DNA of 64,000 nucleotides, from contig QZJZ01000105.1 of assembly GCA_003599815.1 (NCBI GenBank), forward strand, positions 7,174 through 71,173, read 5' to 3'. Positions 1 through 52,727 of the stretch are shown in pieces. The notes beneath the pieces were generated by a model. It did not search any database. It was not told the origin of the DNA and saw nothing but the letters and a program-made list of their open reading frames with translations. Numbering within the stretch: position 1 is the first letter of the stretch; each line of letters opens with the position of its first letter. Source of the DNA: Candidatus Auribacter fodinae. GTDB taxonomy: Bacteria; Auribacterota; Auribacteria; Auribacterales; Auribacteraceae. A program made the position numbers and the translations under genes.

Positions 1-131
1 TTCGGCAATGACTCATACGCGCCTGTCTCAGGATTAACGATCAAAAAATACGAGCATCGCCCGAAACGAGGGTCAACATTGTCCTGCAAACTTTTACCTT
101 CCGATGTAACACAAATTTTCATGATTCCTCC

Positions 132-497
132 TTAATGCGAATGCGATCCGTGGTTCCTGCACGCGCTCAGTCCTGACAGGCTGTTGCTGAGCAGATGGTT
201 AACCGCTTCCGACGCTTTGCCCTGATAACCGGACACGACTACGCCCGCGTTCGCGAACTTTTGTTGCGCGCCCATTCCCATACTGCCTGATATTACATGA
301 GTTACGCCATACATGAGCATACCGTCAACAGCCACACAGCCTCCACCGCCATGGACATTTTCGTTCCGCACAACCTGCGTATCTTTTATTTTTCCGTTTT
401 CCACATCGACCAGCAGGAAATAAGGACTCTGCCCGAAATGCAGAGATACCTGCCCTTCAAGCCCCTGCTGATCTTCCATCGTAATTCCGATTCGCAT
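132..497 (-). CDS. NifB/NifX-like dinitrogenase FeMo-cofactor-binding domain protein (121 aa)
   Basis: The translation has the PHFGxxPYFLLVD motif, a GGGG turn and Gly/Ala-rich alpha/beta repeats typical of the Nitro_FeMo-Co small-protein family. It lies last in a minus-strand operon with Mrp and DUF5320. Confidence 0.6.
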   Translation of the reverse strand: MRIGITMEDQQGLEGQVSLHFGQSPYFLLVDVENGKIKDTQVVRNENVHGGGGCVAVDGMLMYGVTHVISGSMGMGAQQKFANAGVVVSGYQGKASEAVNHLLSNSLSGLSACRNHGSHSH

Positions 498-557
498 ATT
501 TTCTCTCCTTGTTTACTGCGCATCCCCTGCTTTTACACAGGGGATGCTATTATTGTT

Positions 558-863
558 TCAATTCTGTTTTTTATCCTGATTAAGACTATTAATCCGTTCA
601 CGCACAGCGGATAACTGCTCTTCCAGATATTCGGCCTGAGCGCTTAGCCCGGTGAGTTCATCCTTCGCGCTGAGCGGGATATCCCATGATCTCCAGCCGG
701 GTATACCTGTAAGGCGGGCTCTGTACCCGAAACCGAATCCCCGCGCGCCTCCGCCCGGGATACCGCGACGCATAGGACGTACGGGAACACCCGCGCAATA
801 TCCACGCCCGCCGCCGGTAAGAGCTCCGTAACCTGCAGGCCCTGTTCCATCAAATCCAGGCAT
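558..863 (-). CDS. DUF5320-family Gly/Pro-rich small protein
   Basis: The N-terminus has MPGFDGTGP...GRGYCAG and the C-terminus is a coiled-coil, which is the DUF5320 pattern. The start is taken at the ATG at 863, 8 nt downstream of AAGGAGG. The ORF track's GTG at 872 sits inside that RBS. Confidence 0.5.
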   Translation of the reverse strand: MPGFDGTGPAGYGALTGGGRGYCAGVPVRPMRRGIPGGGARGFGFGYRARLTGIPGWRSWDIPLSAKDELTGLSAQAEYLEEQLSAVRERINSLNQDKKQN

Positions 864-880
864 TGTAATCACCTCCTTAA

Positions 881-924
881 TTGATAATAAAAACCATTTT
901 CAGTTATGAGACAAAAAAATATAT
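881..924 (-). promoter_or_regulatory. Fur-box-containing promoter cassette, copy B (TAAAAACCATTTTCA core)
   Basis: A 44-nt stretch is nearly identical to 2494-2538. It contains a 7-1-7 inverted repeat one mismatch from the perfect palindrome found upstream of fur, and it immediately abuts the DUF5320 RBS. Confidence 0.5.
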
Positions 925-928
925 GCCT

Positions 929-1765
929 CTATTGCACTGCCTCTTCAGGAGCAAAATAATTCTCAATCGCATCAAGAATCGACTCCATCTGTTTTTTTAC
1001 CGTATCCGAGCACGAACTGTTGGCCACTGATTTTCCTGCGTCAGCGCCATCGACGATCTGCGGATCGAACCCAAGTTCGCCAAGAAACGGCACGTTCATA
1101 TCCAGCGACACATTTTTTCCGCCGCTTTTCTTAAATATATCTATCTGTTCCTTGCAGTGAGGACAGATCATCCCGCTCATGTTCTCTACTATACCGATGA
1201 CCGGAGTGTTCAGCTTTCTGGCAAAACTGATTGCCTTCCGGGCGTCAAGCGTCGCAACTTCCTGCGGTGTAGTCACTATTACACTGCCTGATATGCCCGG
1301 GATAAATTGCAGTATGCTTAACGGCTCATCGCCTGTGCCGGGAGGCAAATCGACAATCAGGTAATCCAGATCACCCCATTCAACATCCGACAGAAATTGT
1401 TCTATCACCTTTATTTTCAACGGGCCGCGCCATATAAGCGGAGTTTCGCACGAATCAATAAGCCCTGCCATGGATATCACTTTCAGGTTCGGCAGAGGTT
1501 CCAGCGGCATAATCTGGTTTTCCATAGCGAAAATCTTTTTTCCTTCAAGCCCAAGCATTTTAAATACGCTCGGCCCGTGCAGGTCAGCGTCCAGCAATCC
1601 GACTTTACAGTTTCGCATGGCAAACCCGACAGCGATATTCACCGACACCGTGCTTTTTCCCACACCGCCTTTATTGCTCATTACCGCTATGGTATGACGT
1701 ATTGATTTCATCCGTTCTTTAATCTGAGGACTGATAAAGTCTTCAGCATGATGACATTGATCCAT
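929..1765 (-). CDS. Mrp/NBP35 (ApbC) family iron-sulfur cluster carrier ATPase
   Basis: It has the deviant Walker A motif SNKGGVGKSTVS, a ParA/MinD-like fold and a C-terminal CPHC motif. The RBS AAGGAG lies 8 nt upstream of the start. Confidence 0.8.
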   Translation of the reverse strand: MDQCHHAEDFISPQIKERMKSIRHTIAVMSNKGGVGKSTVSVNIAVGFAMRNCKVGLLDADLHGPSVFKMLGLEGKKIFAMENQIMPLEPLPNLKVISMAGLIDSCETPLIWRGPLKIKVIEQFLSDVEWGDLDYLIVDLPPGTGDEPLSILQFIPGISGSVIVTTPQEVATLDARKAISFARKLNTPVIGIVENMSGMICPHCKEQIDIFKKSGGKNVSLDMNVPFLGELGFDPQIVDGADAGKSVANSSCSDTVKKQMESILDAIENYFAPEEAVQ

Positions 1766-1813
1766 ACTTTCCGCTCCTTGTATTGTGTGATCGGGCTTTT
1801 TTGTATTTCCAGT

Positions 1814-2479
1814 TCAGCTTCGCTTTTCAGCAACGTATATTTTCTGTAATTGCTCGTTATATTCCAGCACGTTAAATCCTTTATATTTCAGGTACGCCCC
1901 GACGATAGAAAAATCGTTTGATTTCTTTTCGTGAATTCTTCCCTCGCTTTCATGTATTATGTCAATAATAGCGAACCCCGCGGCATTAAAATCAGAGACA
2001 ATCAGCGTTTTATGCGTCACCCGCATCATCTCATCCAGCACCCTGAACGGTTTGTCAAAATGATGAAACGAGAATGTCGAGATGGACAGGTCAAATGCCC
2101 CGTCATCATAAGCGAGGCATTCCGCTGAAGACAGTATAAATTCAACCCGCTGTTCCACCTGCTCGTACGCGGCGTTCAGGTACGCCATATATAAATTCGC
2201 CTCGTCAATATCTATGGTGAGCACGTTGCCGAACCTCTTCGCGAGCGCGGCAGTCAGGTTTCCTTTGCCTGAACCGATCTCAATTATGCGGCCGGGCATG
2301 AAATCTATTTTTTCCACGGCTTCATCCGTTAGCAGAGCGCGGTCTACCCCGAATTTCAGGTAATATTCAAATCGCTCCGCCAGATTTCTATGGTTCTCAG
2401 CGATTTTATCCTGATTTTTCCGCCACACTTTTTTCATGTCGCAACATCCTGAATCTTTTTCACTTGCCATGCTTTTCAT
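1814..2479 (-). CDS. class I SAM-dependent methyltransferase
   Basis: Motif I (IIEIGSGKGNLT) and the post-I acidic residue (IDIDE) indicate a Methyltransf_11/25-like fold. Confidence 0.7.
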   Translation of the reverse strand: MKSMASEKDSGCCDMKKVWRKNQDKIAENHRNLAERFEYYLKFGVDRALLTDEAVEKIDFMPGRIIEIGSGKGNLTAALAKRFGNVLTIDIDEANLYMAYLNAAYEQVEQRVEFILSSAECLAYDDGAFDLSISTFSFHHFDKPFRVLDEMMRVTHKTLIVSDFNAAGFAIIDIIHESEGRIHEKKSNDFSIVGAYLKYKGFNVLEYNEQLQKIYVAEKRS

Positions 2480-2493
2480 TGAATCCTCTTTTA

Positions 2494-2539
2494 TTGATAA
2501 TGAAAACCATTTTCAGTTATGAGACAAAAAAAATATATT
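2494..2539 (-). promoter_or_regulatory. Fur-box-containing promoter cassette, copy A (TGAAAACCATTTTCA core at 2501-2515)
   Basis: A 45-nt near-duplicate of 881-924 lies 15 nt upstream of the methyltransferase ATG and overlaps the -10/RBS region. Its 22-mer is the exact reverse complement of the one at 8877-8898. Confidence 0.55.
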
Positions 2540-2542
2540 CCT

Positions 2543-3019
2543 CTAGCGAGTGTCCCTGCAGTCTTCGCAGAGCCCGTAAAACTGTATCAGATGCGTATTT
2601 ATGGTAAAATTATATTTTTCCGACAATCCTTTCTCGGTTTTTCTGAGCAGTTCGAGTTCGTCGTCGATAAATTCTTTGTAGTCGATAATTTTTTTGCAGG
2701 CAGTGCACACGAGATGGTGATGATGGTTTTCGTCGTCAGTGCCTGAAGCGAGTTCGTATCGTGCTCTGCCGTCGCCGAAATCGAATTTGAATACCATTCC
2801 CATATCGTTGAGGATTTCCAGTGTGCGGTAGATGGTTGTGAGCCCGACAGCGGGGTTATTTTCGTGGACGCTAAGATAGATTTCTTCCGCGCTCATGTGT
2901 TTTTCTTCGGACAGCATGAGAGTGTTGAGCACTGCTTCTCTGGCGGCGGTGATGCGGTATCCGCATCCTCTGAATTTACCTTGCCACCAACCGTGACCCT
3001 GACATTTCCCGTATGGCAT
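2543..3019 (-). CDS. Fur-family metalloregulator (Fur/PerR-like) with Cys/His-rich N-terminal extension
   Basis: The DNA-binding helix (TIYRTLEILNDMGMV), the HHHH metal site and two CxxC pairs (CTAC...CEDC) are all present. The N-terminus MPYGKCQGHGWWQGKFRGC is unusual. The RBS AAGGAG precedes the start. Confidence 0.8.
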   Translation of the reverse strand: MPYGKCQGHGWWQGKFRGCGYRITAAREAVLNTLMLSEEKHMSAEEIYLSVHENNPAVGLTTIYRTLEILNDMGMVFKFDFGDGRARYELASGTDDENHHHHLVCTACKKIIDYKEFIDDELELLRKTEKGLSEKYNFTINTHLIQFYGLCEDCRDTR

Positions 3020-3032
3020 CTCGTCTCCTTAA

Positions 3033-3047
3033 TGAAAATCATTTTCA
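3033..3047. promoter_or_regulatory. Perfect 7-1-7 Fur-box palindrome TGAAAATCATTTTCA (autoregulatory site)
   Basis: The sequence is an exact inverted repeat. It ends 4 nt before the RBS of the Fur-family gene. The Bacillus-type Fur box is TGATAATNATTATCA. Confidence 0.6.
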
Positions 3048-3105
3048 ATAATAATATAAGTTATAGATCGGCATGAGTCAATATTTTTTTACTGGTGAGG
3101 GATTA

Positions 3106-5865
3106 TTATTGAGAATATTCTTTAAGGAAAAGCTGAAATAAACTCTTTTGATCTCTGCTTAGTTTGTCGTATTCTTCTGAATTCTTTGTATAATCCGAAA
3201 TCATATTATAGAGTTCCTTGAGATTATCCGATATCCAGGGTTTTGCAGCAGAGAAAGTTCTATTATTCATATCGTTTTGAAGGCTATCAGAACAAGCGTG
3301 TAAAAATTTATAGCAGTGGTTTATATTCTTTTTGATGTAAGGGATTATTGTATCAAAAATATCGATTTTGTTTTGTTTGAACCAGAAGAGTACTTTCTTG
3401 AAAACTTCCAAATCAGTAAGACTCTCCAAATTGATTAAAGAAGCATTTTGATTCTCCTTAATGGCTTTTACCAACAACTCTTTCAAATCAGGATAAAATT
3501 GTTTTTCGAAAATCACTCGGATAAAAAGTATTTTTGCGAATAGATGCTCCATTTTATTAAAAACATTTTTGATATCCCCATCTTTCTTAAAATTCTCATG
3601 ACAATACAGAGATACCAATAGAGAAACAGCGTTTGTCCCAATAACCTCGTCATTGATATTCTCAGAAAGTAGCGAAATTACAGCTTTGAACATAAAAAAA
3701 AGTATATCGTGATTGATATCTCTATTATCAGAGACAAAACCCCTCAACAAATAGACCAATTTCGCCAACGGAATATCAGAAGTGCATATATTATTGTGCA
3801 CTTCTTTTTCAGTCATTTCAGTTGTTTTTAACCTAGTAAGGAAGGCTTTTATCTTGCTGTAACTGATATTTTCAGGACTCACGTGAAGGGAAAAATATTT
3901 ATCAAAGAAATCATAATGGCAAATTTTGTATTGACTCATCCATTCAACTCGTTTCGCTAGCAAATAACTCATTGCTCGATTATTTGCATATGCCACAACC
4001 GGAAACAAATATTCCAGAATTTTACTTAATCTGTCTTTTTCTATGGATAAAATATCTTTGTTGTGCTCTGCAATATTCTTATGAAAAATATCCTCTTTTC
4101 TTTTATCCGATCGATTACCTTGCGCTCTATTTGCCGCTTCCTCACTAGAGTATATGTACAAATCTCTATTTGACCAGATATCATCATAAACAGCATGAGA
4201 AATAAACCTGATTATTTCCAACAGCAAAAAATCATTCACATTAACTTCATCTTTAATCTGAGGTATATCAAAGGATACGGAGTTCAAATATCTTTTTACA
4301 TCCCGCAATGTATTGAAGTGCAAGATTGGAACATTTGCTTCAAACACTGCATACTCTTCTTCACCTATTTTTTCTGTTTCAAAAAGTAACTTAATACCTT
4401 TCTTCAAGTATTTATTAAGATAATATGCTTCTATTTTGGGCAATCGGTTAGGATGTTGAACAATTTTTCCCAGATAATCTCTATCACCAAGCTCTTTTAT
4501 GACTTTATCGTCGTCCAGCGCGACCAAGAACCTGGTATTGTCAAGTTTTGCATTTAAACGTATAAGTTTAAGTACGCTAAGTAATTCGTCTTTTTGCAAT
4601 CTGTCCAGATCATCAATGATGATTAATATTTTTTTCTCAGTTCGCCTTATATATTCATTAAGTTTACTTCTCAATTCTTCGAGATTTTCTTCACAACTTG
4701 ATTTTGCAAAACATTTGAGGTATTTATTCTCCCCTAAAATAGTATTTACATACTTATTTAATGTTTTGCTGAAATCCCTGAACAGAAAATTATAACACAC
4801 AGCGTTTTCAATCTGCTTATAAAAATTTTTCAATAACACTGTTTCATCTTCAAAATGCCATGGATCAAATTCTACCACCATATACTTAGACGACATTTTT
4901 TGTTTAGCCTGTTCTCTTTTCTCAGGGTCTTCTTCAGTTCCTCGAAATATCGACTTAAGAATCTCCAGAACAGAACTTTTCCCTTCACCCCATGACCCAT
5001 ATAAACCGATGACATGGGAATGGATATCTTTGATTTCGTCTATACGTTTTGCAAGTCCCTTAATGAAATCGATTCGCCCTAATTCATCTTGATCAAGGCG
5101 AGTTATCGGTTCATCGTTATAAATTTGTTTTCTTTCTTCTTCCTCATCTTTTCCAGCGTTTTGAGGAGTATTACTTTTTGGTTTTACAAAGAAAGCTCGT
5201 ATTACGATAATAAAGCCATAAATTACTGCAAAAATCATTATGCTTTTGAAATATAGATCAGATAACGAAAATCTCTGTAGCAAAGCGTTTAAACCCGACT
5301 TCGCAGGCCACAATACCCCTGCGCATATTAAAATTACATATAAAAATATAAATTCTTCAAAAACAAAGAGTGAGTTTTTAAGTTTAAGTGTATTGTGATA
5401 TTTCCTGAAAAAATCTATGAGTATGCTCCAAAAGCAAAACGCCAGAAAAGTCAAGACAACATAGATCAATACGATCAACAGTATATCCTGATACAAGAAA
5501 TCACTTATTTTAAATATTATTGATCTGAAATCGATATGTAGTTTATGTAAAAGATACTGAATTCCCAGAAAAGTTATCACTGCAAGTAACAGCGTATACC
5601 AATGTCGCTTCCAATTCCTCATCTTTCGTAACTTACCCTTATAAAGAATGAAATGAAGCAAAAAGAAAAATAAGGGGATATAGAAAAGACACTGAGGCAA
5701 ATCGACATAAATATCAATTAACACAAGAAAGACGGACAGTAAAAGAGCAACTGGTGTATAGAATGACCTTGAGAGTATTATCGTTACAATTTGTTTGATT
5801 AGCTCTTTCATCTTTTCTGCTGTAATGGTTTTATTGGAGATGCAGATCAGCTTACCCAATGACAT
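3106..5865 (-). CDS. KAP-family P-loop NTPase with N-terminal multi-pass membrane domain (919 aa)
   Basis: The Walker A motif GLYGSWGEGKSS and Walker B motif ILIIIDDLDRL are hallmarks of KAP NTPases. Roughly 250 aa of N-terminal hydrophobic helices precede them. The gene is markedly AT-rich relative to its neighbours. Confidence 0.65.
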   Translation of the reverse strand: MSLGKLICISNKTITAEKMKELIKQIVTIILSRSFYTPVALLLSVFLVLIDIYVDLPQCLFYIPLFFFLLHFILYKGKLRKMRNWKRHWYTLLLAVITFLGIQYLLHKLHIDFRSIIFKISDFLYQDILLIVLIYVVLTFLAFCFWSILIDFFRKYHNTLKLKNSLFVFEEFIFLYVILICAGVLWPAKSGLNALLQRFSLSDLYFKSIMIFAVIYGFIIVIRAFFVKPKSNTPQNAGKDEEEERKQIYNDEPITRLDQDELGRIDFIKGLAKRIDEIKDIHSHVIGLYGSWGEGKSSVLEILKSIFRGTEEDPEKREQAKQKMSSKYMVVEFDPWHFEDETVLLKNFYKQIENAVCYNFLFRDFSKTLNKYVNTILGENKYLKCFAKSSCEENLEELRSKLNEYIRRTEKKILIIIDDLDRLQKDELLSVLKLIRLNAKLDNTRFLVALDDDKVIKELGDRDYLGKIVQHPNRLPKIEAYYLNKYLKKGIKLLFETEKIGEEEYAVFEANVPILHFNTLRDVKRYLNSVSFDIPQIKDEVNVNDFLLLEIIRFISHAVYDDIWSNRDLYIYSSEEAANRAQGNRSDKRKEDIFHKNIAEHNKDILSIEKDRLSKILEYLFPVVAYANNRAMSYLLAKRVEWMSQYKICHYDFFDKYFSLHVSPENISYSKIKAFLTRLKTTEMTEKEVHNNICTSDIPLAKLVYLLRGFVSDNRDINHDILFFMFKAVISLLSENINDEVIGTNAVSLLVSLYCHENFKKDGDIKNVFNKMEHLFAKILFIRVIFEKQFYPDLKELLVKAIKENQNASLINLESLTDLEVFKKVLFWFKQNKIDIFDTIIPYIKKNINHCYKFLHACSDSLQNDMNNRTFSAAKPWISDNLKELYNMISDYTKNSEEYDKLSRDQKSLFQLFLKEYSQ

Positions 5866-5932
5866 ATTACACCATACAGCATTACTGTATCAATCTATAT
5901 TCGAATAATAAAAAGGAATGAAAAATTAAGCC

Positions 5933-6943
5933 TTAACTCCTCATTCTTTTGCGGAGAGCTGTACCGAATAGTCCGGCACACAGCAAAAAGATCGACATCG
6001 GTTCAGGTACCGCAAACTGTGAAGCGTCGGTCAACAGAAACGCGTGGGTCTCACCATCAGGATTGATACCATACCCGATGATCTGACCGAAACTATTGAT
6101 ATCCCAGGCATCCTGTAAATACCATCCAGTTCCATTATCAACAAGGTCATTCAAGTCTTTCATTGTGGAATCTTCATATAGAAAAGCGGTCGAATTGTTT
6201 AACGCATTCCTGGAATACCCAACCAATAAACCATCGTCATTTATACCGCGCACTTCGGATTTAACATCATCGGCAAGAGTACCAATAAAATGAGCGGTTC
6301 CGTCATAATACATTGCAGTATAATCAGTTCCGTTGTTAGTCACTGCTCCGGCCATCACATTACTGTTGTTTATCGCCCTGAACCAAGCGGATGTCCCGCC
6401 AAGCGTACCTATATTGTGCTGAGAACCATCCCAGTAAGCTGCCTGCTCCCAGTTGTATCCTGCCATGACACCGGAATCATTAATTGCCCACGGACGCCCG
6501 TGACTAAAATAAGTTAAGTTTCCGTTATATCGATATGCCTGATCGCTTTCAGTATATCCCGCAATCTGACCCGACGTGTTAATCCCGCGTGTATAACCAT
6601 TTATTCCAGGATCATGATATGTACCGTCATAGTACAAACTTTTGACTGGTGAGGTCATTGAATTAAATATTACTACGCCGGAATTGTTTATACCTGTCGC
6701 TACGGTATCGGAATATCCTAGTCCAGCCCCGATGTTTATCATGGTTGTGCCATTCCATAAAAATGCCTGTCTCTCACCTGAGGAATTAGTGGATTCACCA
6801 ACAACATGCCCGGAATCGTTCATGGCGTAAGCTTTGCTATTCGTGCCTCCAAGAGTGCCGAGGTCGATTATGTGATAGGCGGCAGAGTATGCCGCGCAGG
6901 GAAAAAGAATGGATATTAACAGGAAAAAGATTATTTTGCGCAT
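5933..6943 (-). CDS. HAF-repeat extracellular protein with PEP-CTERM sorting signal
   Basis: It has a signal peptide, repeated GYSxxxxG(x)xHAFLW/AxxYDG-type repeats and a C-terminal VPEP motif followed by a TM helix and RKRMRS. Confidence 0.65.
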   Translation of the reverse strand: MRKIIFFLLISILFPCAAYSAAYHIIDLGTLGGTNSKAYAMNDSGHVVGESTNSSGERQAFLWNGTTMINIGAGLGYSDTVATGINNSGVVIFNSMTSPVKSLYYDGTYHDPGINGYTRGINTSGQIAGYTESDQAYRYNGNLTYFSHGRPWAINDSGVMAGYNWEQAAYWDGSQHNIGTLGGTSAWFRAINNSNVMAGAVTNNGTDYTAMYYDGTAHFIGTLADDVKSEVRGINDDGLLVGYSRNALNNSTAFLYEDSTMKDLNDLVDNGTGWYLQDAWDINSFGQIIGYGINPDGETHAFLLTDASQFAVPEPMSIFLLCAGLFGTALRKRMRS

Positions 6944-7035
6944 TGTCTAATCCTTCTATATATAGAATTAAAAATATTATCAATTAATTATAACATATAT
7001 AGAAAGATATAGCAAATTTCAGACTTATTTTTCGC

Positions 7036-7066
7036 ACAAAAAAAGCGTGCCGAACCACACGGCACG
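7036..7066 (-). terminator. Rho-independent terminator for the ferritin-like/prx transcript
   Basis: On the minus strand the hairpin cgtgccg/cggcacg is followed by a T-run. The same stem sequence occurs at 9047-9079. Confidence 0.4.
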
Positions 7067-7100
7067 GCACGCTGGAAACTATCGTACTAACACTTACTTT

Positions 7101-7580
7101 TTATGCCATATCAGCGAGCAAAGATTCCAGATCTTCCTCATGCTTGACTTCATCCTCAAGGATTTCCAACACCAGATGGTAGGTGATAGGATCTTTATCC
7201 TTCACGAAATCAAGGAGTTTGCTGTATGTGGCGATGGCGCATTGCTCGCCTTTGATATTTTGTTTGAGCAATGTTTTGGTGCATGGATCAGTCGGAGCGT
7301 CGTATCCGCACCCTGACTCTTTCAACAACGCTTCCGGTGTCAGAAGCGGAGTTCCGCCTAATGTAATCATGCGTTCAACAAGCTTCTGCGCATGTTCCAG
7401 TTCTTCATTAGCGTGCTCTTCCAGCTCTCCGGCGACAATTCCTCTCATCCTGCCGGAAGCGACTTTCGCGCCGACCCAATACTGGTAATACGCGAGCCAC
7501 TCGTCCGCGTACGCTTTGTTCAGCATATCCAGCAGTTTCGCAACATCTACTCCGACAATAGCCTTACCTTTTGTGCCCAT
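7101..7580 (-). CDS. ferritin-like diiron protein (Dps-like/bacterioferritin-type)
   Basis: The four-helix-bundle ferroxidase ligands follow an ExxH pattern (ELEEHANEELEHAQK; EDEVKHEED). The protein is 159 aa. Confidence 0.55.
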   Translation of the reverse strand: MGTKGKAIVGVDVAKLLDMLNKAYADEWLAYYQYWVGAKVASGRMRGIVAGELEEHANEELEHAQKLVERMITLGGTPLLTPEALLKESGCGYDAPTDPCTKTLLKQNIKGEQCAIATYSKLLDFVKDKDPITYHLVLEILEDEVKHEEDLESLLADMA

Positions 7581-7619
7581 AATATCGTTTTCCTTTCGTC
7601 ACAATAAGTCTTGGTCATA

Positions 7620-8282
7620 TTATTTCAATTTAAGCGGCTTAAAACAAATAAACCAGTCAAGGCACTTTATGCCTTCTTTCTGAGCGCCTTCAACTCGCGC
7701 TTTCGCGGTACCGCAACTACCCGGAGGCGGTACAATAACGTCATCGCCGGGCTGCCAGTCCGCCGGAGTGGCGACGTTATACGTATCCACTGTCTGCATG
7801 GAAATAAGTATCCGCTTAATTTCCTGAAAATTGCGTCCTGTTGACAACGGATAATACATAAGCGCCCTCACTTTAGCCTTAGGGTCAATAAAAAACACTG
7901 CTCTTACCGCGCTCACGTCACTTTCAGAAGGCTGAATCATCCCGAACTTTTTCGCCACATCCATTTTAAGGTCGGCAATCACGGGAAAGTTCACTTCAAT
8001 ATTCTTTAATCCTTTGTACTCGATCTTTTCCTTGATTGTCCGCAACCACGCGATATGGCTGTAATGGCTGTCTATGGAAAGCCCGATAAGTTTGCAATTT
8101 AATGCGTCAAATTCTTTTTCCATAGACGCGAACGTCATAAATTCCGTCGTGCAGACAGGCGTAAAATCAGCCGGATGACTGAACAGTATAACCCATTTCC
8201 CCTTATAATCTTCCGGGAACTTTATTTTCCCCTGGGTTGTATCTGCTTCAAATGACGGGGCAACATCGCCGATGACAGGCAT
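7620..8282 (-). CDS. peroxiredoxin, 1-Cys Prx6 type
   Basis: The match to MPVIGDVAPSF...WVILFSHPADFTPVCTTE is canonical. The start was trimmed to the MPVIGD methionine (the ORF track extends to 8339). Confidence 0.8.
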   Translation of the reverse strand: MPVIGDVAPSFEADTTQGKIKFPEDYKGKWVILFSHPADFTPVCTTEFMTFASMEKEFDALNCKLIGLSIDSHYSHIAWLRTIKEKIEYKGLKNIEVNFPVIADLKMDVAKKFGMIQPSESDVSAVRAVFFIDPKAKVRALMYYPLSTGRNFQEIKRILISMQTVDTYNVATPADWQPGDDVIVPPPGSCGTAKARVEGAQKEGIKCLDWFICFKPLKLK

Positions 8283-8455
8283 ATAGGTTTTTTCACAGTT
8301 ATTCTGTTCCACTTTTAATCCCCCCTTCGCATCAACCATTTTTCAACGTTGTCGTTTGACAGTAAAAATCGACCTTATTATTTCAACGACGTCCCCGCAT
8401 CAGAAACGATTATATGTGTCTACTGCGGAGAGTCATGCCTCCTTGCGAAAAATCA

Positions 8456-8773
8456 TCAGACCGCCGTTTCGTACCACTTGTCAAGCCACGCCGCGTTTTC
8501 ATCAAAAGGATTTGTCTGCATGGCGAATAAAAAGAAATACGGATAATGCTCTCTTGTATAATACATATAACTCAGCCACTGGTGAGTCAGATGGTTATAC
8601 GCGCGTTCAAGATCTTTTTTGGTATGGGATTTATCTTCCTGAGAAAGATTAACCAGATTCCGCGCGGCTAATTCTTCAGTCATATGAAATATGGACATCA
8701 GAGTTTCCGTAAATGTCTGATGTTCAAGCAAATTCTGGTTTTGGAGCAAATTAACCAAAAAACCTCGCCGCAA
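8456..8773 (-). CDS. hypothetical protein (TTG start; alternative ATG at 8698)
   Basis: There is an open frame only. The RBS is weak and no recognisable domain is present. Confidence 0.25.
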   Translation of the reverse strand: MRRGFLVNLLQNQNLLEHQTFTETLMSIFHMTEELAARNLVNLSQEDKSHTKKDLERAYNHLTHQWLSYMYYTREHYPYFFLFAMQTNPFDENAAWLDKWYETAV

Positions 8774-8876
8774 AGGATGACCTCTTCTTCATTTTTACTA
8801 TTTGAGCCGCTTCTATCCAATAAACAAAAAAATGTTATATTTCCGCATGCAGTATGTACCATGCAAAGGATAGTAT

Positions 8877-8898
8877 TGAAAATGGTTTTCATTATCAA
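8877..8898. promoter_or_regulatory. Orphan Fur box (TGAAAATGGTTTTCATTATCAA), exact inverse of the 2494-2515 22-mer
   Basis: It lies in a 333-bp AT-rich interval between predicted genes, 104 bp from the nearest (weak) start codon. Confidence 0.45.
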
Positions 8899-9046
8899 TT
8901 TTATCTTTAGTGGGAGATTTGTCAATAATCATTTTTGGAGAATTATTCCAGGAGTGAACGCTGTATTTGAGAAGACTTCCGGTTCCGTTTTTCACAACTC
9001 AAACACATCGCAATAAAGATAAATATTTAACATATTGATACTAATG

Positions 9047-9079
9047 AAAAAAAACGTGCCGAATACGCAATCCGGCACG
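9047..9079 (-). terminator. Rho-independent terminator (minus strand) after the 9108-9905 gene
   Basis: The hairpin cgtgccg-N10-cggcacg is followed on the minus strand by eight T residues. Confidence 0.4.
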
Positions 9080-9107
9080 CTCTATGTTAACCTACTTTAA
9101 TTCAGGA

Positions 9108-9905
9108 TTATAATTCAAAAACCAGACTCATACCGCCCCACGGAATAACATCCTCGTAATCGTATTCCTCTTTAAGCCCTTTGGTCATATGCAGAAAACC
9201 GGTGACCGCCATGTGCCTGCTGAGCGGCACTGTATAATCAACCCCGAAATCAATATGCGTCAGAAAGGTGTGGTCAACTCCTTTGCGGGAATTCATGCCC
9301 AACGCCATCGACGGCACCAGCGCACCATACTTCCCAAACTCAAAACCATGCGATATGCACCATTCAAAATAATATCCTTTTTCCTCGTGATAATCATAAT
9401 TCATGATAAACGTTGGGTTCAGGAATGTGTCAATCGCCACTTCCAGCCCGACTTCTTCGGAATCAGGCTCGCCTTCAGGGATATCCACATACGTCCACAT
9501 CGGCACCAGAGTAACCGGGCCCACGCAGAACTCAGCAAAAATGGTATGGTCGCGCTCTAGCGTCTCAGGTTTCGCGTCAGTAAACGAGGCGCTGAAAAAG
9601 TTGTAGCCAACCGCCACAACATCGCCAATCGGTATACTCGCAGTATATGACTGGTGGACGTTCCAGTCATGAGGAGCGGCATTCGCGCCCTCGTCTATCC
9701 AGTGGCTCATGAAAATAGCTTCAGCGGTGAAATCGATCGGAACCGCCTCGCCCGCAGTATCGAGCGCGTTGTCCACATCTTTCACGAACGGCAATCCGTA
9801 TGTGATGTAACCATCGTTATCACTGGGACACTCATCATCCGCTAAAACACCGTGCTGTCCGCAAAGCGACATTAATAGAACTGCACAAATTATGTTTTTC
9901 TTCAT
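9108..9905 (-). CDS. secreted/outer-membrane hypothetical protein
   Basis: The signal peptide MKKNIICAVLLMSLCGQHGVLA follows GGAGG. The protein is aromatic-rich with alternating beta-like segments and a C-terminal F-x-L. The start was trimmed from 9995. Confidence 0.45.
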   Translation of the reverse strand: MKKNIICAVLLMSLCGQHGVLADDECPSDNDGYITYGLPFVKDVDNALDTAGEAVPIDFTAEAIFMSHWIDEGANAAPHDWNVHQSYTASIPIGDVVAVGYNFFSASFTDAKPETLERDHTIFAEFCVGPVTLVPMWTYVDIPEGEPDSEEVGLEVAIDTFLNPTFIMNYDYHEEKGYYFEWCISHGFEFGKYGALVPSMALGMNSRKGVDHTFLTHIDFGVDYTVPLSRHMAVTGFLHMTKGLKEEYDYEDVIPWGGMSLVFEL

Positions 9906-10193
9906 TATTATCCTCCATACTTGTTTATGGTACTCCATTCTGCCTTTATTATAATAGGTAAAAAGAACCAATAAAATGAATACCTGCACATCCAAAATTT
10001 AATTTGTTACTCGTTTATACCGGCATATTGTTAGGATAGCCTAACTTTTATTGCGGGTCAATTGTTTTTTTACCAAAAAAATCGTTTTTTTATTTTGATA
10101 AAAAATATTCATGGAAATTTGACAACTCACACTTATCATGCTATTTAAATATATGAAGGAAAATTATATAACTGCGCACAACGAGGCTGATCG

Positions 10194-11261
10194 ATGAAAT
10201 ATTCCAGATTATTTGCCACCACACTTTTTTTAGCACTATGCACACTGTTCTCAAACACGTCATTTTCCGCTGAATGGTGGGATGCGGATTACGATTACAG
10301 GCAGGCTCTTGATATAACCACCGCCGGGTACGGGGTATCAGCGGATTACAGTACCAAAGTCACACTTGACCTTGGTTCATTGGTTACGGACGGTAAAATA
10401 CGAGCTGATTACAATGACGTGCGCGTAGTGTTCCATGACGGTACGACATATACAGAGCTTGACCGTCATATCCGCAACGGTTCGTCAGGCAGTGAAATAT
10501 GGTTTGCCATGCAGGAAGGGCAATCCGCGAATACGACTGTTACCGGGAAGTACTACCTTTATTACGGCAACACAGAAGCAACCTCCGCTCCGACAAATTA
10601 CAGTAACATTTACATGATGTATGACGGGTTCAGCGGCACTTCGCTGTCCAGCAACTGGCATGGATCGACCAGCAGTTATTCCGTGTCAAACGGATCTTTG
10701 GTTATACCAAACACAAACGGTGGCGGGCTGGTTATTTATACTGACGCTTACCAGCACAATAGCGTTCGCGAATATTCCCTGAAACTCACTGCGCTGAGCC
10801 CCGGACAGTTATATGTCCATACCCTTGCCGATACAACCGCGAATAACGATTGGGGTTCCGGCAACAGAGTGGTCCACGACGTTGACCCGGCAGGAACCGT
10901 GAATAACAATATCCGCGAAGCGCCGCTCCAATTTTACTGGACACACTCCACATCGCAATTTGAAGTGTTTCAGGATGTTTTTTATAACAACACGGAATGG
11001 TATTACGCAGGTTCCAGCTATGAGTCTCTGGCATTGAAAAGCACGGATGCTCCGACAAATACCATCGCGACCCGCACATTTAAGATCAACAGCCAGCATA
11101 CCAAGCAGGTGTGGTACATGGACTACGTATTGATCCGCGACTACGTCCCGGTTGAGCCGAGTGTCACTTTTATGAGTGAGGAGTCCAACCTGATTCCTGA
11201 GCCTGTTTCAATTATCTTGCTTGGCATCAGCGTATTATACCTTAAGATACGCCGCAGGTAA
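10194..11261 (+). CDS. DUF2341-domain protein with PEP-CTERM sorting signal
   Basis: The DUF2341 pattern is signal peptide, W..DYDYR..L.I, DVRVVFHDG..., EIWF..., YYLYYGN. The C-terminus is IPEP, a TM helix and RRR. Confidence 0.6.
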   Translation: MKYSRLFATTLFLALCTLFSNTSFSAEWWDADYDYRQALDITTAGYGVSADYSTKVTLDLGSLVTDGKIRADYNDVRVVFHDGTTYTELDRHIRNGSSGSEIWFAMQEGQSANTTVTGKYYLYYGNTEATSAPTNYSNIYMMYDGFSGTSLSSNWHGSTSSYSVSNGSLVIPNTNGGGLVIYTDAYQHNSVREYSLKLTALSPGQLYVHTLADTTANNDWGSGNRVVHDVDPAGTVNNNIREAPLQFYWTHSTSQFEVFQDVFYNNTEWYYAGSSYESLALKSTDAPTNTIATRTFKINSQHTKQVWYMDYVLIRDYVPVEPSVTFMSEESNLIPEPVSIILLGISVLYLKIRRR

Positions 11262-11807
11262 CAAAATCCTTTTATTAACCCCTGTTGCCGCCTACTTATA
11301 TCGTGAACTGCTTAACGATTTCGTCCAGCATTGCGGCCTGCCCGTTCAAATAATCAAACCGGGCAACACTGCCGATTAAATTTTCCTCAATTACAGCAAA
11401 GCAGAGAATAACTATGTTCCCGTTTTTCTGACAGTGACAACAGGAAATACGGTGCGGGGACATAACATAGTAAAGTCAATTTTGCCGCCATAGCACAGAA
11501 TTTCAATCAAATACTTTTATTTTTTATTCAGTAATATCTTTATAATCAAAAACATAATCATTTTTTTACTTTATTGAAACAATGAAAGAATAAAAACCAT
11601 ACCTTTACACTCATAAAATAAATTAATTATTTCTGTAACTCCGATGTTCTTCATATTGTTATAGATTCATCAAAATATATTTTTTTAATTTATTTTTTTA
11701 TTTGCAAACAATAACATATTTTTTATATAATATCATATTATAAGCTGTTTCTGGCTTCTCCAAAACGGAGAGATGACTACATAGATTGCAACAACAAGGA
11801 GGAAACC

Positions 11808-12542
11808 ATGAAAAGGCTGATTTTCATCACATGCATCATTCTTTCAATCGCTTCCATTGCCGGAGCCGACCCACTGGGCAAATACTACAAATGGTCGCAA
11901 TTCCCCGACATGGATGCGAGCGGGTATGATGTGCCTGATGTGCACCCAAACATTCTGGCTGACGATTTTCTGTGCGAAAACGGGCTGGACATCACAGACA
12001 TCCACTGGTGGGGATCATTAATCGGCTGGCAACAGGATCTCCCAATGCCTGATCCTGCGTTAGCGCCGCAACCTGACTTTTTCGATTTCAGTTTTCACAC
12101 AGATGTCCCTGCCGGGCCTAACAGTCCATACAGCCATCCCGGGGGATTGCTGGCAACTGACCAAGCATCAAAGGTGGAGTATACCGTCAATTATTTCGGT
12201 ACAATAGACCATGGCGGTATCTTCGAGCATGTATTCCAGTACAATTTCGACCTTCATCAGTACTGGCAACAACAGCAAGGCCAGATTTACTGGCTGGATA
12301 TTTCCGCTATTTACGCTCAACAGCCAATGTTTACATGGGGATGGCATACCGCTAAAACACAATGGAACGATTCAGCGGTCATGCTGGCGCCGGGTACACC
12401 GCAGGGATGGGCGCCAATAGACAGCGGCGAACCGCGCGACCTGGCATTTGAGTTGTCGACAGTTCCTGAACCGGGCGCAATGATCCTGTTCGGCATGGGC
12501 GGCTTTTTCTGGCTGGCTAAACGCATCAGGAAACACGTATAA
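11808..12542 (+). CDS. PEP-CTERM sorting-domain secreted protein
   Basis: It has a signal peptide and a C-terminal VPEPGAMILFGMGGFFWLAKRIRK. Confidence 0.6.
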   Translation: MKRLIFITCIILSIASIAGADPLGKYYKWSQFPDMDASGYDVPDVHPNILADDFLCENGLDITDIHWWGSLIGWQQDLPMPDPALAPQPDFFDFSFHTDVPAGPNSPYSHPGGLLATDQASKVEYTVNYFGTIDHGGIFEHVFQYNFDLHQYWQQQQGQIYWLDISAIYAQQPMFTWGWHTAKTQWNDSAVMLAPGTPQGWAPIDSGEPRDLAFELSTVPEPGAMILFGMGGFFWLAKRIRKHV

Positions 12543-12556
12543 TTTTTTATGAAAAT

Positions 12557-12594
12557 AATCCCCCGCTTTTCGCAATCAGCGGGGGATTATTTTG
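12557..12594 (+). terminator. Rho-independent terminator
   Basis: The stem aatcccccgc/gcgggggatt has a 12-nt loop and is followed by a TTATTTT run, immediately after the stop at 12542. Confidence 0.6.
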
Positions 12595-12717
12595 CCTGAA
12601 CACCCTGTTAAGCAGGCAGGGCAGGCTTTGTTTATCAGATCAATTGAGTAAATCCTCCCATAGAAATACATTTTCCCGGCTATTCCTGCCAAATTTGTTA
12701 ATAACACATATATACGG

Positions 12718-12746
12718 TTGACATAATTTTACAAATACTGTATAAA
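12718..12746 (+). promoter_or_regulatory. sigma70-like promoter (TTGACA-17-TATAAA)
   Basis: The match to consensus has ideal spacing. It lies about 22 bp upstream of repeat copy 1 and about 210 bp upstream of the 12958 ATG. Confidence 0.35.
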
Positions 12747-12767
12747 TTCTGCCTATTCTGAAACAAT

Positions 12768-12921
12768 TTGGGAGTGCTGAAAAAGATTCTAAGTTCCTCT
12801 TTTAAGATGTCATCACAAGGAGCGTTAGCGGCGTGGTGATCTTAAAATGAATAAAGCTGAGATTGCCACAGCCCCTTTGGGGCTTCGCAATGACATTCTC
12901 TTGTGACTTTTTCATCGTTCT
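12768..12921 (+). repeat. Novel ~150-bp intergenic repeat, copy 1
   Basis: It is 85-90% identical to the copies at 14744-14895 (inverted), 41218-41354 and 52573-52727. It ends 37 bp before the ATG at 12958. Confidence 0.65.
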
Positions 12922-12957
12922 AAATTTATATGATATACAACAGGACAGGAGCAATCC

Positions 12958-14559
12958 ATGCGATCAATAATACATCTGGCGTTATTACTGACACTCGCGG
13001 CAGTCATATTTTCAGGCTCGCTCAGGGCGGACGATACTATCAACTTGGACGGCAGTTATTTTTACGGGGGGTTCAGCAGTCATTCGCCATATCCGTACGA
13101 ACCGTACACAGCCATCGGTGACCAGTACATATCCGGTTCAAGCATGGTGCTGACGCTCAACTTCTCGGACGATCCGCCATCTCAAACGTTCCTGACAATC
13201 ACCAACACGTTTTATGACAGCGAAGGATGGCTCAACCTCATTGTAGAGCTCGATAACGAGACATATCACGAAATAGGGATAGCGAACGACTGGCTCGCCA
13301 TATTTGTTATGCGCGACCCGGGTGTGGATGAAATACTTGACATAACATACAGCCTCAAGAAAAAGACTGCGCCCACTATTGCGGAAATCGCGGGCGAGTA
13401 CTCTATTTTCGGGCATTATTCCGGCGTGGGCAGTGATGAAATGTGGAGTTCATCCATGAACGGCGCCGTCACTCTGGGGCTGGATGGTTCTCTCACATAC
13501 AGCGTTACACCTGATTTCGGCGACACGGAAACAGGGGCATCAACATACACTCTTAACGCCTCTACCTCCACCATATATGTAACAGGCGTCGGAGAATTCC
13601 TTATCGGCGAAGGCGGTATGTTAATGCGCTTTGACAGGGATGCTTCAGACAACGAACTTTTCTATGAAATTCTGGTAAAACGGTCGTCAGGGAAAACCCT
13701 GGCTGATTTTGAAGGGTGCTGGAAATTCCAGGCGTTCGCGGCAGGCGATAACACCAGAGCGCCTTACACCGCATGGGGGTTAGCGGTAGTTTTTAATGAC
13801 GGAACCTGCCTTGTATCCAACGACTACTACGGGTATACCAGCGAGACCGTATCTGCAGTCATTTCCGCTTCTGACAACGGGGTGTTTACGGTAACCAGCA
13901 ATCTCGGGTACGAATATACCGGCATACTGAGCCCGGCATCCGATGCGGCAATCATGCAGATCGCCATTGACGAACTCTACCACTCGGTAGGCACTGCCAT
14001 AAAGATACAGCTCGACCCGTCGGACGATAATGACAACGACGGCATCAGCAACAACATGGAATTCGCGCAAAAAATCAATCCTCTTAACCCTGATACCGAC
14101 TCAGACGGCATGCCCGACGGCTGGGAACTCGCGAATACCCTCAGCCCCCGCGATAACGACGCTGAATCCGACACTGACCTTGACGGGCTCACCGCTCTGC
14201 GGGAATACAGCCTCAACACCAACCCCAACAACGATGACTCCGATAACGACGGGTTTAAAGACGGCGACGAAATCACCGCAGGCACGAATCCGAATGACAA
14301 TATATCCTTTTTTACAATGGTTTACATCAATCCCCGGACAAACACCCTCTGCTGGGTAGGCGCAACTACTGCCAGCTACAGGATGTCATGGAAAGATTCA
14401 TTTGACGAGTTCTGGCATGAAGTAACGCTATCGTCGGACGAACTGGTGTTTCAGTCAGATACTGTATCATACACAGATAACGGCGACGACACTTCTGTTC
14501 CGGCAAGACTGCCTCTCAATGAAGCAAATAAACGATTATACAAAATTACCGCATACTAA
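12958..14559 (+). CDS. secreted protein with thrombospondin-type-3-like Ca-binding Asp-rich repeats
   Basis: It has a signal peptide and six or more DxDxDG(x)xD/N motifs (e.g. DPSDDNDNDGISN, DTDSDGMPDGWE, DDSDNDGFKDGDE) in the C-terminal third. Confidence 0.5.
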   Translation: MRSIIHLALLLTLAAVIFSGSLRADDTINLDGSYFYGGFSSHSPYPYEPYTAIGDQYISGSSMVLTLNFSDDPPSQTFLTITNTFYDSEGWLNLIVELDNETYHEIGIANDWLAIFVMRDPGVDEILDITYSLKKKTAPTIAEIAGEYSIFGHYSGVGSDEMWSSSMNGAVTLGLDGSLTYSVTPDFGDTETGASTYTLNASTSTIYVTGVGEFLIGEGGMLMRFDRDASDNELFYEILVKRSSGKTLADFEGCWKFQAFAAGDNTRAPYTAWGLAVVFNDGTCLVSNDYYGYTSETVSAVISASDNGVFTVTSNLGYEYTGILSPASDAAIMQIAIDELYHSVGTAIKIQLDPSDDNDNDGISNNMEFAQKINPLNPDTDSDGMPDGWELANTLSPRDNDAESDTDLDGLTALREYSLNTNPNNDDSDNDGFKDGDEITAGTNPNDNISFFTMVYINPRTNTLCWVGATTASYRMSWKDSFDEFWHEVTLSSDELVFQSDTVSYTDNGDDTSVPARLPLNEANKRLYKITAY

Positions 14560-14743: not shown

Positions 14744-14895
14744 GGGACCGATGAAAAGTCACAAAAAAATGTCATTGCGAAGCCCGAAGTGTCTGCGGCA
14801 ATCTCAGCTCGATTCATTTTGAGATCACCACGCCGCTAACGATCCTCATGATGACAGCTTAAGGAGAAATTGATAGACTTTTTCAGCGCACCAAA
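14744..14895 (-). repeat. Novel ~150-bp intergenic repeat, copy 2 (inverted)
   Basis: This is the reverse-complement copy and the most divergent, with a 1-nt indel in the core. Its edge is 20 bp from the kinase ATG at 14916. Confidence 0.65.
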
Positions 14896-41217: not shown

Positions 41218-41354
41218 TTGGGAGTGCAGAAAAAGATTCTAAGTCTAATGGAGGAGCGTTAGCGACGTGGTGATCTCAAAATGAATAGAGATGAGATTGT
41301 CACAGCCCCTCTGGGGCTTCGCAATGAGATTCTCTTGTGCTTTTTCATTGCTCT
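41218..41354 (+). repeat. Novel ~150-bp intergenic repeat, copy 3 (with ~20-nt internal deletion)
   Basis: It aligns to copies 1 and 4. It lies about 225 bp upstream of the ATG at 41579. Confidence 0.6.
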
Positions 41355-43860: not shown

Positions 43861-44706
43861 CTATAATGTTCTAAAAAAGTCATCATCAACAGAAATATCT
43901 TCAATAGTTTTTTGCTTAATTACTAAACCTAAACGCAACTCTCTTAATTTTTCAGCAAGAGCTTGTCCATCAACTAGATCAACTGGTGGAGCACCATCTC
44001 TTTTGGCTTCTTTTTTTGCATCTGGACTAAACGTGCCTGTTGTTAGAATTAATCCTTTTTCCGCTCTGCCAATCATTGCACCCCGAAAATCTCTAACGAC
44101 AGAAGCAGAAACACTACCCTGATAACGTTTACACTGGAAAATAATTGGAAACGATAATAAACCGCCAATGCGAATAATTCCTTTACCGTCAATTCCTCCA
44201 TCGCCTGATTTTCCAGTGACTTCTACTTGTGTAAAACCAGCTTCACGTAACAATCGTTGGCATAACCGTTCAAAAGCATCTGGGGAAACTGCCTTAATCT
44301 TCTCTAATAAAACATTCTGCCAAGCAATTTCCTCAGGTTCCTTATCATTGTTTAATGCACCATCAACACTATCTTCTGATTTTGAGCCGAGTTTCTTCAC
44401 AAATCTATCAACTTTTGCCTTGCTAACATTTTCGGTTTTTCTGCCTTCCGGAGTTAACGCCCATATTCCACGAACTGAATTATTTAGTAACCCATATCTC
44501 TTTAAATAATGGCGTGCCCATGCCAACCTATTACTAAAAACTGTACAATTTCTATACTGAATTTTAGTAATATCTTCATCTGATAACCCAAGTATTTTCG
44601 CAACTTCCTCCTCCTGTTCTGAAATGGAAGCTGAACTCCCTAAATTATGCATAGCTTTCAACAACGGATTAAACAAATCATTATATTTTGGGATAGTCAT
44701 AACCAT
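43861..44706 (-). CDS. mrr: Mrr-type restriction endonuclease (type IV, modification-dependent)
   Basis: An Mrr_N winged helix is followed by an Mrr_cat PD-(D/E)xK core (GKSGDGGIDG...FQCKRY). The gene is AT-rich. Confidence 0.75.
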   Translation of the reverse strand: MVMTIPKYNDLFNPLLKAMHNLGSSASISEQEEEVAKILGLSDEDITKIQYRNCTVFSNRLAWARHYLKRYGLLNNSVRGIWALTPEGRKTENVSKAKVDRFVKKLGSKSEDSVDGALNNDKEPEEIAWQNVLLEKIKAVSPDAFERLCQRLLREAGFTQVEVTGKSGDGGIDGKGIIRIGGLLSFPIIFQCKRYQGSVSASVVRDFRGAMIGRAEKGLILTTGTFSPDAKKEAKRDGAPPVDLVDGQALAEKLRELRLGLVIKQKTIEDISVDDDFFRTL

Positions 44707-52572: not shown

Positions 52573-52727
52573 TTTGGAGCGCTGAAAAAGATTCTAAATT
52601 CCTCTTTTAAGATGTCATCACGAGGAGCGTTAACGACGTGGTGATCTCAAAATGAATAGAGCTGAGATTGCCACAGCCCCTTTGGGGCTTCGCAATGACA
52701 TTCTCTTGTGACTTTTTCATCGTTCTC
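52573..52727 (+). repeat. Novel ~150-bp intergenic repeat, copy 4 (most complete)
   Basis: It lies between the two prepilin/FecR paralogs and ends 138 bp before the ATG at 52865. Confidence 0.65.

Follow-up and report, generated by a model that had tools for sequence, protein, structure and literature searches.

A single-gene, AT-rich cassette encoding a 919-residue, membrane-anchored NTPase of the KAP family was identified in a 64,000-nucleotide stretch of the Candidatus Auribacter fodinae genome (phylum Auribacterota; contig QZJZ01000105.1 of assembly GCA_003599815.1; hereafter the window). The open reading frame (ORF), on the minus strand, begins with ATG (M1 at 5865, with M18 at 5814 as another possible start) and occupies 3106..5865, within the interval 3060-5930 in which a first-pass annotation had placed it, and it lies as described there between a Fur-family gene (2543..3019) and a HAF-repeat PEP-CTERM gene (5933..6943, minus). 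With a probability of roughly 0.55, we read the gene as a horizontally acquired, strain-variable, one-protein anti-phage system of the PifA clade, in which a sensor, an NTPase and a membrane effector joined in one chain would bring about abortive infection. The defence role by itself appears likely, and the specific membrane-effector mechanism, drawn by analogy, is offered tentatively, at something short of even odds. The reading is built on the domain anatomy of the protein, its homology to PifA, its foreign composition, the exchange of the cassette between strains and the gene contexts of homologs.

The KAP family P-loop NTPase domain (4273..5073, minus; residues 265-531) was modelled by AlphaFold2 (AF2) with a predicted local distance difference test score (pLDDT) of ∼90, and matched Pfam KAP_NTPase (PF07693) at 110.7 bits against a cut-off of 20 (1e-31; model positions 2-287 of 293). 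Both KAP signatures named in the first-pass annotation are in place, namely Walker A, GSWGEGKS (4975..4998, minus; residues 290-297), and Walker B, LIIIDDLDR (4600..4626, minus; residues 414-422). Residues W292, G293, G295, K296, D418, D421 and R422 were invariant across 46 sequences, and all catalytic motifs of the protein are intact. The top PADLOC defence model was PifA (PDLC02361; E = 2.9e-47, 159.7 bits), followed by QatA (E = 3.3e-15), and BLASTP against F-plasmid PifA returned 22% identity at E = 4e-17. Using hhalign, a profile of the membrane-anchored clade was aligned to F-plasmid PifA over 406 columns with 99.5% probability (E = 2.7e-23). Since this alignment joins residues 258-683 of the query to PifA 21-477, the homology spans the NTPase domain and the helical middle region (3817..4272, minus; residues 532-683) and not the last ∼235 query residues. 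Judged from these comparisons, the protein is a distant homolog of PifA. A PDB sequence profile search gave generic P-loop matches only (E ∼3e-3), and no solved KAP structure was identified by sequence.

Upstream of the NTPase domain, approximately six transmembrane (TM) segments are predicted within residues 26-230, both as Kyte-Doolittle peaks and as long helices at the same places in the AF2 model, which agrees with the multi-TM N-terminus recognized earlier. No hydrophobic segment was found by Kyte-Doolittle analysis beyond residue 230, so that Walker A and Walker B are not separated by a membrane insertion. The family description by Aravind and colleagues from 2004 is said to place TM helices within or right after the NTPase domain; the query has no such insertion, and the feature is not universal, PifA being without it too. 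The membrane module consists of a core of four predicted TM helices (5170..5622, minus; residues 82-232; helices at ∼88-108, 125-150, 166-189 and 205-228) preceded by an extension with two extra predicted helices (5623..5865, minus; residues 1-81; helices at ∼34-52 and 56-75). The extension is missing from the close homologs aligned and is paralleled in one relative (L051). Between TM4 and TM5 lies the loop motif RKYHNTLKL (5380..5406, minus), which is predicted to be cytoplasmic and follows the family consensus [KR]YxNTxxL, itself part of a wider conserved motif, W..[KR]YxNTxxL...F.[YW].D. Within the loop, Y156 and L162 were invariant in 8 sequences, and the tyrosine was at least 90% conserved in 54. 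As far as can be judged from sequence, such conservation argues against a passive anchor. The positive charges of the loops, assessed by inspection of the sequence, fit six helices arranged N-in/C-in, with a cytoplasmic NTPase.

The earlier label ‘atypical’ overstates how unusual this architecture is. When 1.84 billion representatives were searched with a profile built from the four-helix core (residues 82-245 of the query together with six homologs), only 98 clusters matched, always at the protein N-terminus. Among the core-profile matches of at least 550 aa, over which the count was taken, 54 of 54 also have KAP_NTPase and no fusion of the core to a non-KAP domain family was seen; the shorter matches are 88-407 aa long. 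Within the clade, however, the module recurs. Of the 50 nearest metagenomic relatives, taken from a search of 5.8 billion proteins, roughly half have 3-4 TM helices ahead of Walker A, placing that motif at approximately residue 182-218; another half or so are soluble, their Walker A falling at approximately residue 45-60, and one of the 50 has TM helices between the Walker motifs. The 80 best loci in species genomes encode 77 complete relatives, of which eight possess the N-terminal TM module (in Nitrospirota, an actinomycete metagenome-assembled genome, Aminicenantes, Ignavibacteria, Dysgonomonas, Elusimicrobia and others) and none has a TM segment within the P-loop domain. The predicted N-terminal membrane architecture is therefore real and rare in absolute terms, yet not unique to the window gene, whose two additional helices shift Walker A to residue 290.

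Homologs align from about residue 82, which coincides with M82, but M82 was rejected as the sole true start because the 81 codons 5' of it are open, for which composition-matched shuffles gave P = 0.005, and because about two extra TM helices also precede the equivalent point in L051. With 3-8 stops in the remaining five frames across the same 81 codons, the sequence favours a protein longer than one starting at M82. A sigma-70-like promoter match, TTGATA-18-TAATAT (5864..5893, minus; a match to consensus only), lies in the cassette just upstream of M1 and overlaps it, so M18 may be the real start; the six predicted helices are retained in either case. No strong Shine-Dalgarno sequence was found ahead of M1, M18 or M82. 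The Joint Genome Institute (JGI) gene call on Ga0394679_046267, the 133.7-kb metagenome contig that includes the window (L001 10001-12133), begins at Met210 and, at 710 aa, omits the whole membrane domain (window 5176..5865), while JGI called all 919 aa on a 19.9-kb contig of 100% identity recovered from a different metagenome. Similar shortened calls (e.g. P0006, 722 aa) may conceal N-terminal membrane architectures in databases.

The first-pass annotation had estimated by eye a G+C content of 30-35% for the gene against about 50% in the flanks; the computed value for the gene (0.325) falls within that range, although the flanks vary between 45 and 50% rather than lying flat at 50%. The check proposed with that estimate set the gene clearly apart from the other 42 ORFs of the window (≥150 aa; G+C 0.473 ± 0.027), with z = -5.5 and a G+C at third codon positions (GC3) of 0.326 versus 0.52, and the gene is the lowest-GC 2.76-kb stretch within the window. 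Its 919-codon frame is unbroken in 32% G+C DNA in which the other frames contain 7-11 stops per 100 codons.

Comparison with a sister strain bore out the suggestion of horizontal acquisition. An identical Fur protein is encoded by the sister genome GCA_040756935.1 (contig JBFLXX010000002.1; L014) and by a Logan contig (L017). L014 is 96.3-96.8% identical to the window at the nucleotide level over 13354..7029 and 3091..1, and L017 matches over 3091..1. Between the matching flank blocks the DNA of both contigs differs from that of the window, and the sister strain lacks the KAP gene. The exchanged cassette, with approximate boundaries at 3092..5922, thus comprises the KAP gene alone and its 56-bp upstream region, and sits between a ferritin/PEP-CTERM block and the fur promoter. 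On the PEP-CTERM side, the sister strain keeps an 81-bp remnant of the 3' end of that gene, through the stop codon and TTAATTT, and then diverges; on the fur side, identity starts again 10 bp before the fur -35 box. The HAF/PEP-CTERM gene was considered as a part of the cassette and rejected on account of its host-like G+C (0.448) and this remnant. In place of the KAP gene the sister strain has an allele of ∼3.2 kb consisting of a single 1045-aa gene in opposite orientation (L014:6695-9832, minus; G+C 0.329). Because a different AT-rich single gene occupies the same site, between conserved flanks in a close strain, the cassette is regarded as swappable cargo at a hotspot.

No integrase or transposase was found at the KAP locus of the window, ARAGORN reported no tRNA or tmRNA, so that this is not a tRNA-linked island, Rfam matched no family in the whole window, and a repeat search over 2900-7200 turned up neither direct nor inverted repeats that convincingly flank the cassette. 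Since tRNA, integrase, transposase and bracketing repeats were not found at the locus, the swap fits homologous recombination through the conserved flanks, which we infer to have been the route. A 15-nt direct repeat (3086-3100, TTTTTACTGGTGAGG, and 6640-6654, TTTTGACTGGTGAGG; 14/15 identical) has its first copy across the right cassette junction; as a cassette boundary it was dismissed as probably due to chance, the partner copy lying inside the HAF/PEP-CTERM gene. In a more distant relative (Fur 67% identical) fur adjoins a ZnuA/ABC-3 transporter and the KAP gene is missing there. No close relative was found with the Fur protein among species genomes, and the strain comparison was made via exact-protein matches; an exact match search with the ferritin protein did not reveal a third allele of the hotspot.

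The 1045-aa gene of the sister strain has no Pfam or PADLOC family. Its homologs, full-length at 25-30% identity and named ‘hypothetical protein’, occur on at least 11 plasmids; the one on a Nostoc plasmid adjoins an AbiEii/DUF6088 toxin pair, an integrase and a NACHT protein, and the one on an Agrobacterium plasmid adjoins Tn7-like TniQ/TniB/Mu-transposase genes. We consider it a candidate for an unannotated defence gene.

Gene-by-gene contexts were established for six membrane-anchored homologs of the KAP protein. One adjoins a type ISP restriction enzyme and an IS200-like transposase, another lies among PIN/Phd and ParE toxin-antitoxin pairs, a third adjoins a BglII-type (type II) restriction-modification system, and a fourth is in a region resembling an integrative and conjugative element (ICE) with TraG and Fic; the fifth has a TPM and a LemA gene on either side and a DUF2283 gene close by, and the sixth has housekeeping flanks. 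The first four thus lie beside restriction-modification, toxin-antitoxin or ICE-like genes, in keeping with the defence-island setting expected earlier, and the other two in housekeeping-like contexts. In all six, the G+C of the homolog is below that of its own flanks. When 74 neighbour ORFs from 12 loci with membrane-anchored homologs were pooled, they matched 186 PADLOC models versus 12 for the window's 42 other ORFs, counts that are inflated by redundant restriction-modification models and serve as an indication rather than a statistic. The models include type I, II and IIG restriction-modification, SoFic, PDC-S01 and mad2, and Pfam gave the same mixture along with housekeeping genes. Two genomes that are not related to each other, one of Nitrospirota and one of Dysgonomonas, have LemA and TPM genes close to a membrane-anchored KAP homolog, with TPM_phosphatase upstream and LemA downstream of the KAP gene in L003/L018 and both genes 1.5 kb downstream in L011/L046, which may be coincidence or a preferred insertion neighbourhood. 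Relatives of the KAP protein were present in at least 329 species genomes from many phyla, in a patchy distribution that includes bacteria of the candidate phyla radiation, and on 92 plasmid records; tblastn against 50,697 phage records found no match, and thus nothing points to a phage origin.

The remainder of the protein, a divergent all-alpha C-terminal region (3109..3816, minus; residues 684-919), is a putative sensor. The full-length AF2 model had a mean pLDDT of 74.6, with ∼90 in the core, and its best PDB fold match was RdrA of the RADAR system (8hr8, 8fnu; Foldseek E = 6e-6, TM-score ∼0.26), followed by ORC/Cdc6, clamp loaders and NLRs. Modelled alone, the C-terminal 345 residues were all-alpha (pLDDT 67.5) and weakly resembled an alpha-solenoid. 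In a fold search this model retrieved nothing below E = 0.1, the weak matches being armadillo/HEAT/14-3-3-like and the best in the PDB (E = 0.14) being to armadillo/14-3-3-like repeats, and hence no nuclease, protease or other effector fold could be assigned to the region. Tetratricopeptide or other named repeats were not detected in the query by Pfam or fold search.

The mechanism that we propose is modelled on PifA and on STAND-type immune NTPases. The C-terminal region would sense a phage product, upon which the STAND/AAA+-like KAP NTPase would bind NTP or hydrolyse it and assemble into an oligomeric ring, in the manner of RdrA, the structure that it matches best. Ring formation would bring together or gate the fused six-helix membrane module, the four-helix core with its two extra helices, and the cytoplasmic membrane would become depolarised or permeable, aborting the infection. 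The outcome would be the membrane lesion reported for soluble PifA, for which PMC13001434 summarises membrane depolarisation and nucleotide leakage on sensing T7 products, with the membrane part here built into the same chain. The earlier suggestion of a plausible defence candidate is in keeping with the PADLOC PifA match, the PifA profile homology, the homolog contexts and the finding that TM-bearing KAP NTPases protect against phage, with Walker B and the C-terminal region required (PLoS Biol 2026, PMC13552941).

A number of results weigh against a one-protein abortive membrane effector. The TM region was modelled with low confidence (pLDDT 45-80), the closest homolog is only ∼30% identical, two of the six homolog contexts are housekeeping-like, and the PADLOC counts of pooled neighbours are inflated as noted. 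The TM core is the least conserved part of the protein (15% identity to homologs versus 39% for the NTPase), which would be as compatible with an effector as with a mere anchor. Among the 77 complete species-genome relatives 67 are soluble, so the core activity of the clade needs no fused membrane domain, and EF_KAP, a TM-bearing KAP protein that needs Walker B and its C-terminal region, was reported to be non-abortive with equal protection at a multiplicity of infection of 1 and 10 (PMC13552941). The low TM-core conservation, the dominance of soluble relatives and the behaviour of EF_KAP would also favour an alternative that we regard as unlikely but not negligible, in which the gene serves defence with the membrane module as anchor or localiser only, the C-terminal region both sensing and acting and cell death not being needed. 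Such an arrangement is difficult to match with a C-terminal region lacking an effector fold (best PDB match E = 0.14), with the occurrence of the four-TM module beside KAP in every match of at least 550 aa and its conserved loop motif, and with a membrane lesion as the known phenotype of PifA.

Two further explanations do without phage defence of the host, and we give both little credence. That the protein is a non-immune, membrane-associated signalling or scaffold NTPase, like animal Kidins220/ARMS, and its gene AT-rich by chance, seems improbable: the KAP family includes non-immune scaffold proteins (PMC13001434), two homolog contexts are housekeeping-like and LemA/TPM genes recur near two homologs, but strains with flanks 96-97% identical differ in whether they have the gene, its alternative is another foreign gene, and it is missing beside fur in the more distant relative. 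Homolog G+C below that of the flanks wherever examined, the patchy distribution over many phyla and PifA as the best model match likewise speak against a signalling or scaffold role. It is also improbable that the gene serves a mobile element by excluding competing elements, or that it landed recently and is unexpressed or decaying. PifA itself is plasmid-borne, one homolog lies in the ICE-like region with TraG and Fic, relatives occur on 92 plasmid records, and no strong Shine-Dalgarno sequence precedes the three possible starts; against this stand the failure to find an integrase, transposase, tRNA or flanking repeats at the locus, a 919-codon frame kept open where other frames are full of stops, the intact catalytic motifs and the recovery of an identical copy in a second metagenome.

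Returning to the sensor-NTPase-membrane effector reading, a bolder form of it may be entertained, although we think it rather doubtful: the N-terminal four-to-six-helix module would be a nucleotide-gated pore, and the site between ferritin and fur a recombination hotspot that swaps AT-rich single-gene immune cassettes. If so, sensor, switch and channel would lie in one chain, a bacterial counterpart of resistosomes on a KAP rather than a NACHT/NB-ARC engine, which would show what soluble PifA must recruit at the membrane, and the 1045-aa gene would be a new defence gene.

PifA is among the oldest known abortive-infection genes and encodes a soluble KAP NTPase that damages the membrane; relatives in which a membrane module is joined to this engine hint at the seat of the effector activity. 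In a one-gene construct, sensor, switch and membrane part would be separable by deletion. The natural swap of two AT-rich single genes at one site in near-identical strains serves as an in-situ marker for a defence hotspot, in a candidate phylum without cultured members or known phages, and it also points to the 1045-aa gene as a second candidate. If the protein is only an anchored PifA-like protein, it would be an ordinary addition to the KAP defence family.

Several other features of the window were recorded. The conserved flank that starts 10 bp from the cassette end contains the fur promoter, TTGACT-17-TATATT, with a perfect 7-1-7 palindrome (3033..3081, minus, for promoter and palindrome together). 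The palindrome, TGAAAATGATTTTCA (3033..3047, minus), lies between the fur -10 box and the ribosome-binding site and resembles a Fur/PerR box, which suggests fur autoregulation; the peroxiredoxin and ferritin-like genes a short way upstream (7620..8339 and 7101..7580) would fit a regulon of the PerR type. An Mrr-type type IV restriction endonuclease (43861..44706, minus; Mrr_N and Mrr_cat; PADLOC mREase_IV, 5.7e-31) is the window's second compositional outlier (G+C 0.37, GC3 0.238). The KAP and Mrr genes being the two most AT-rich, both extremes are defence-type singletons. A dispersed intergenic repeat of ∼80-125 bp with 80-90% identity was found at 12771-12894, 14771-14847, 41245-41327 and 52602-52699, and in the sister strain a further copy (L014 6435-6558) lies at the position of the absent 5' portion of the HAF/PEP-CTERM gene; the repeat matched nothing in Rfam and may be an element of the miniature inverted-repeat transposable or repetitive extragenic palindromic type. 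A second strain-variable spot lies downstream of a PMT glycosyltransferase gene (L014 19097-20477 and L017 12631-14011 versus L015 19230-20003 of the window strain), where the sister strains encode a DUF4276 protein and an AAA_15/AAA_21 ATPase, a pair which we take to resemble AriB/AriA of PARIS, and the window strain encodes a 257-aa PEP-CTERM protein.

Among known systems, the closest is PifA, which excludes phage T7 from Escherichia coli carrying the F plasmid. The KAP core and helical middle region are shared over ∼400 residues, both are single-protein systems on mobile DNA, and action at the cytoplasmic membrane, reported for PifA (PMC13001434), is proposed likewise for the query. Identity is only 19-22%, however, and the last ∼235 residues of the query do not align. 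PifA is without TM helices according to the same source, whereas the query has approximately six at its N-terminus; pifC, a repressor gene, abuts pifA in F and has no counterpart beside the query; and PifA is encoded on a conjugative plasmid, the query in a chromosomal hotspot that has the HAF/PEP-CTERM gene and fur as neighbours, on a contig of 134 kb that also holds housekeeping genes. EF_KAP and three other KAP anti-phage proteins, all experimentally tested and dependent on Walker B (PMC13552941), resemble the query in being stand-alone proteins with TM helices and a C-terminal region without known fold. By description, EF_KAP has two TM helices, the first N-terminal and the second within the KAP domain, unlike the six-helix N-terminal module without insertion found here, and its reported non-abortive action contrasts with that proposed for the query. 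Tmn, a P-loop NTPase embedded in the membrane, detects a phage protein and exerts its effect at the membrane in the form of a large oligomer, but it belongs to another family, has two TM helices inside the P-loop domain where the query has none between its Walker motifs, and exports Mg2+ with plasmolysis but without depolarisation (PMC13001434). The query matched neither a YobI nor a Tmn model.

RdrA, a ring-forming STAND/AAA+-like defence ATPase of similar size, provides the best solved-structure match, yet at a TM-score of ∼0.26; RdrA is soluble, and the query has no PADLOC RdrA match and no RdrB deaminase neighbour. QatA of QatABCD is likewise a KAP-type defence ATPase, to which the query is only a weak match (53.5 bits against an NCBIfam cut-off of 600), and QatB, QatC and QatD were not found near it. 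Bacterial STAND/Avs proteins combine an N-terminal effector, some of them pore-forming, with a central NTPase switch and a C-terminal helical-repeat sensor. The query would share this three-part layout, although its NTPase belongs to the KAP and not the NACHT/NB-ARC clade. As classified by sequence models, the protein is thus recognized as KAP and PifA and lacks the defining features of QatABCD, RADAR and Tmn. It is not a new kind of system, because automated tools would label it PifA-like and defence by TM-bearing KAP proteins has already been shown; the novelty lies in the N-terminal membrane module associated with KAP proteins, which takes a six-helix form here, and in a clean two-allele cassette swap in a candidate phylum.

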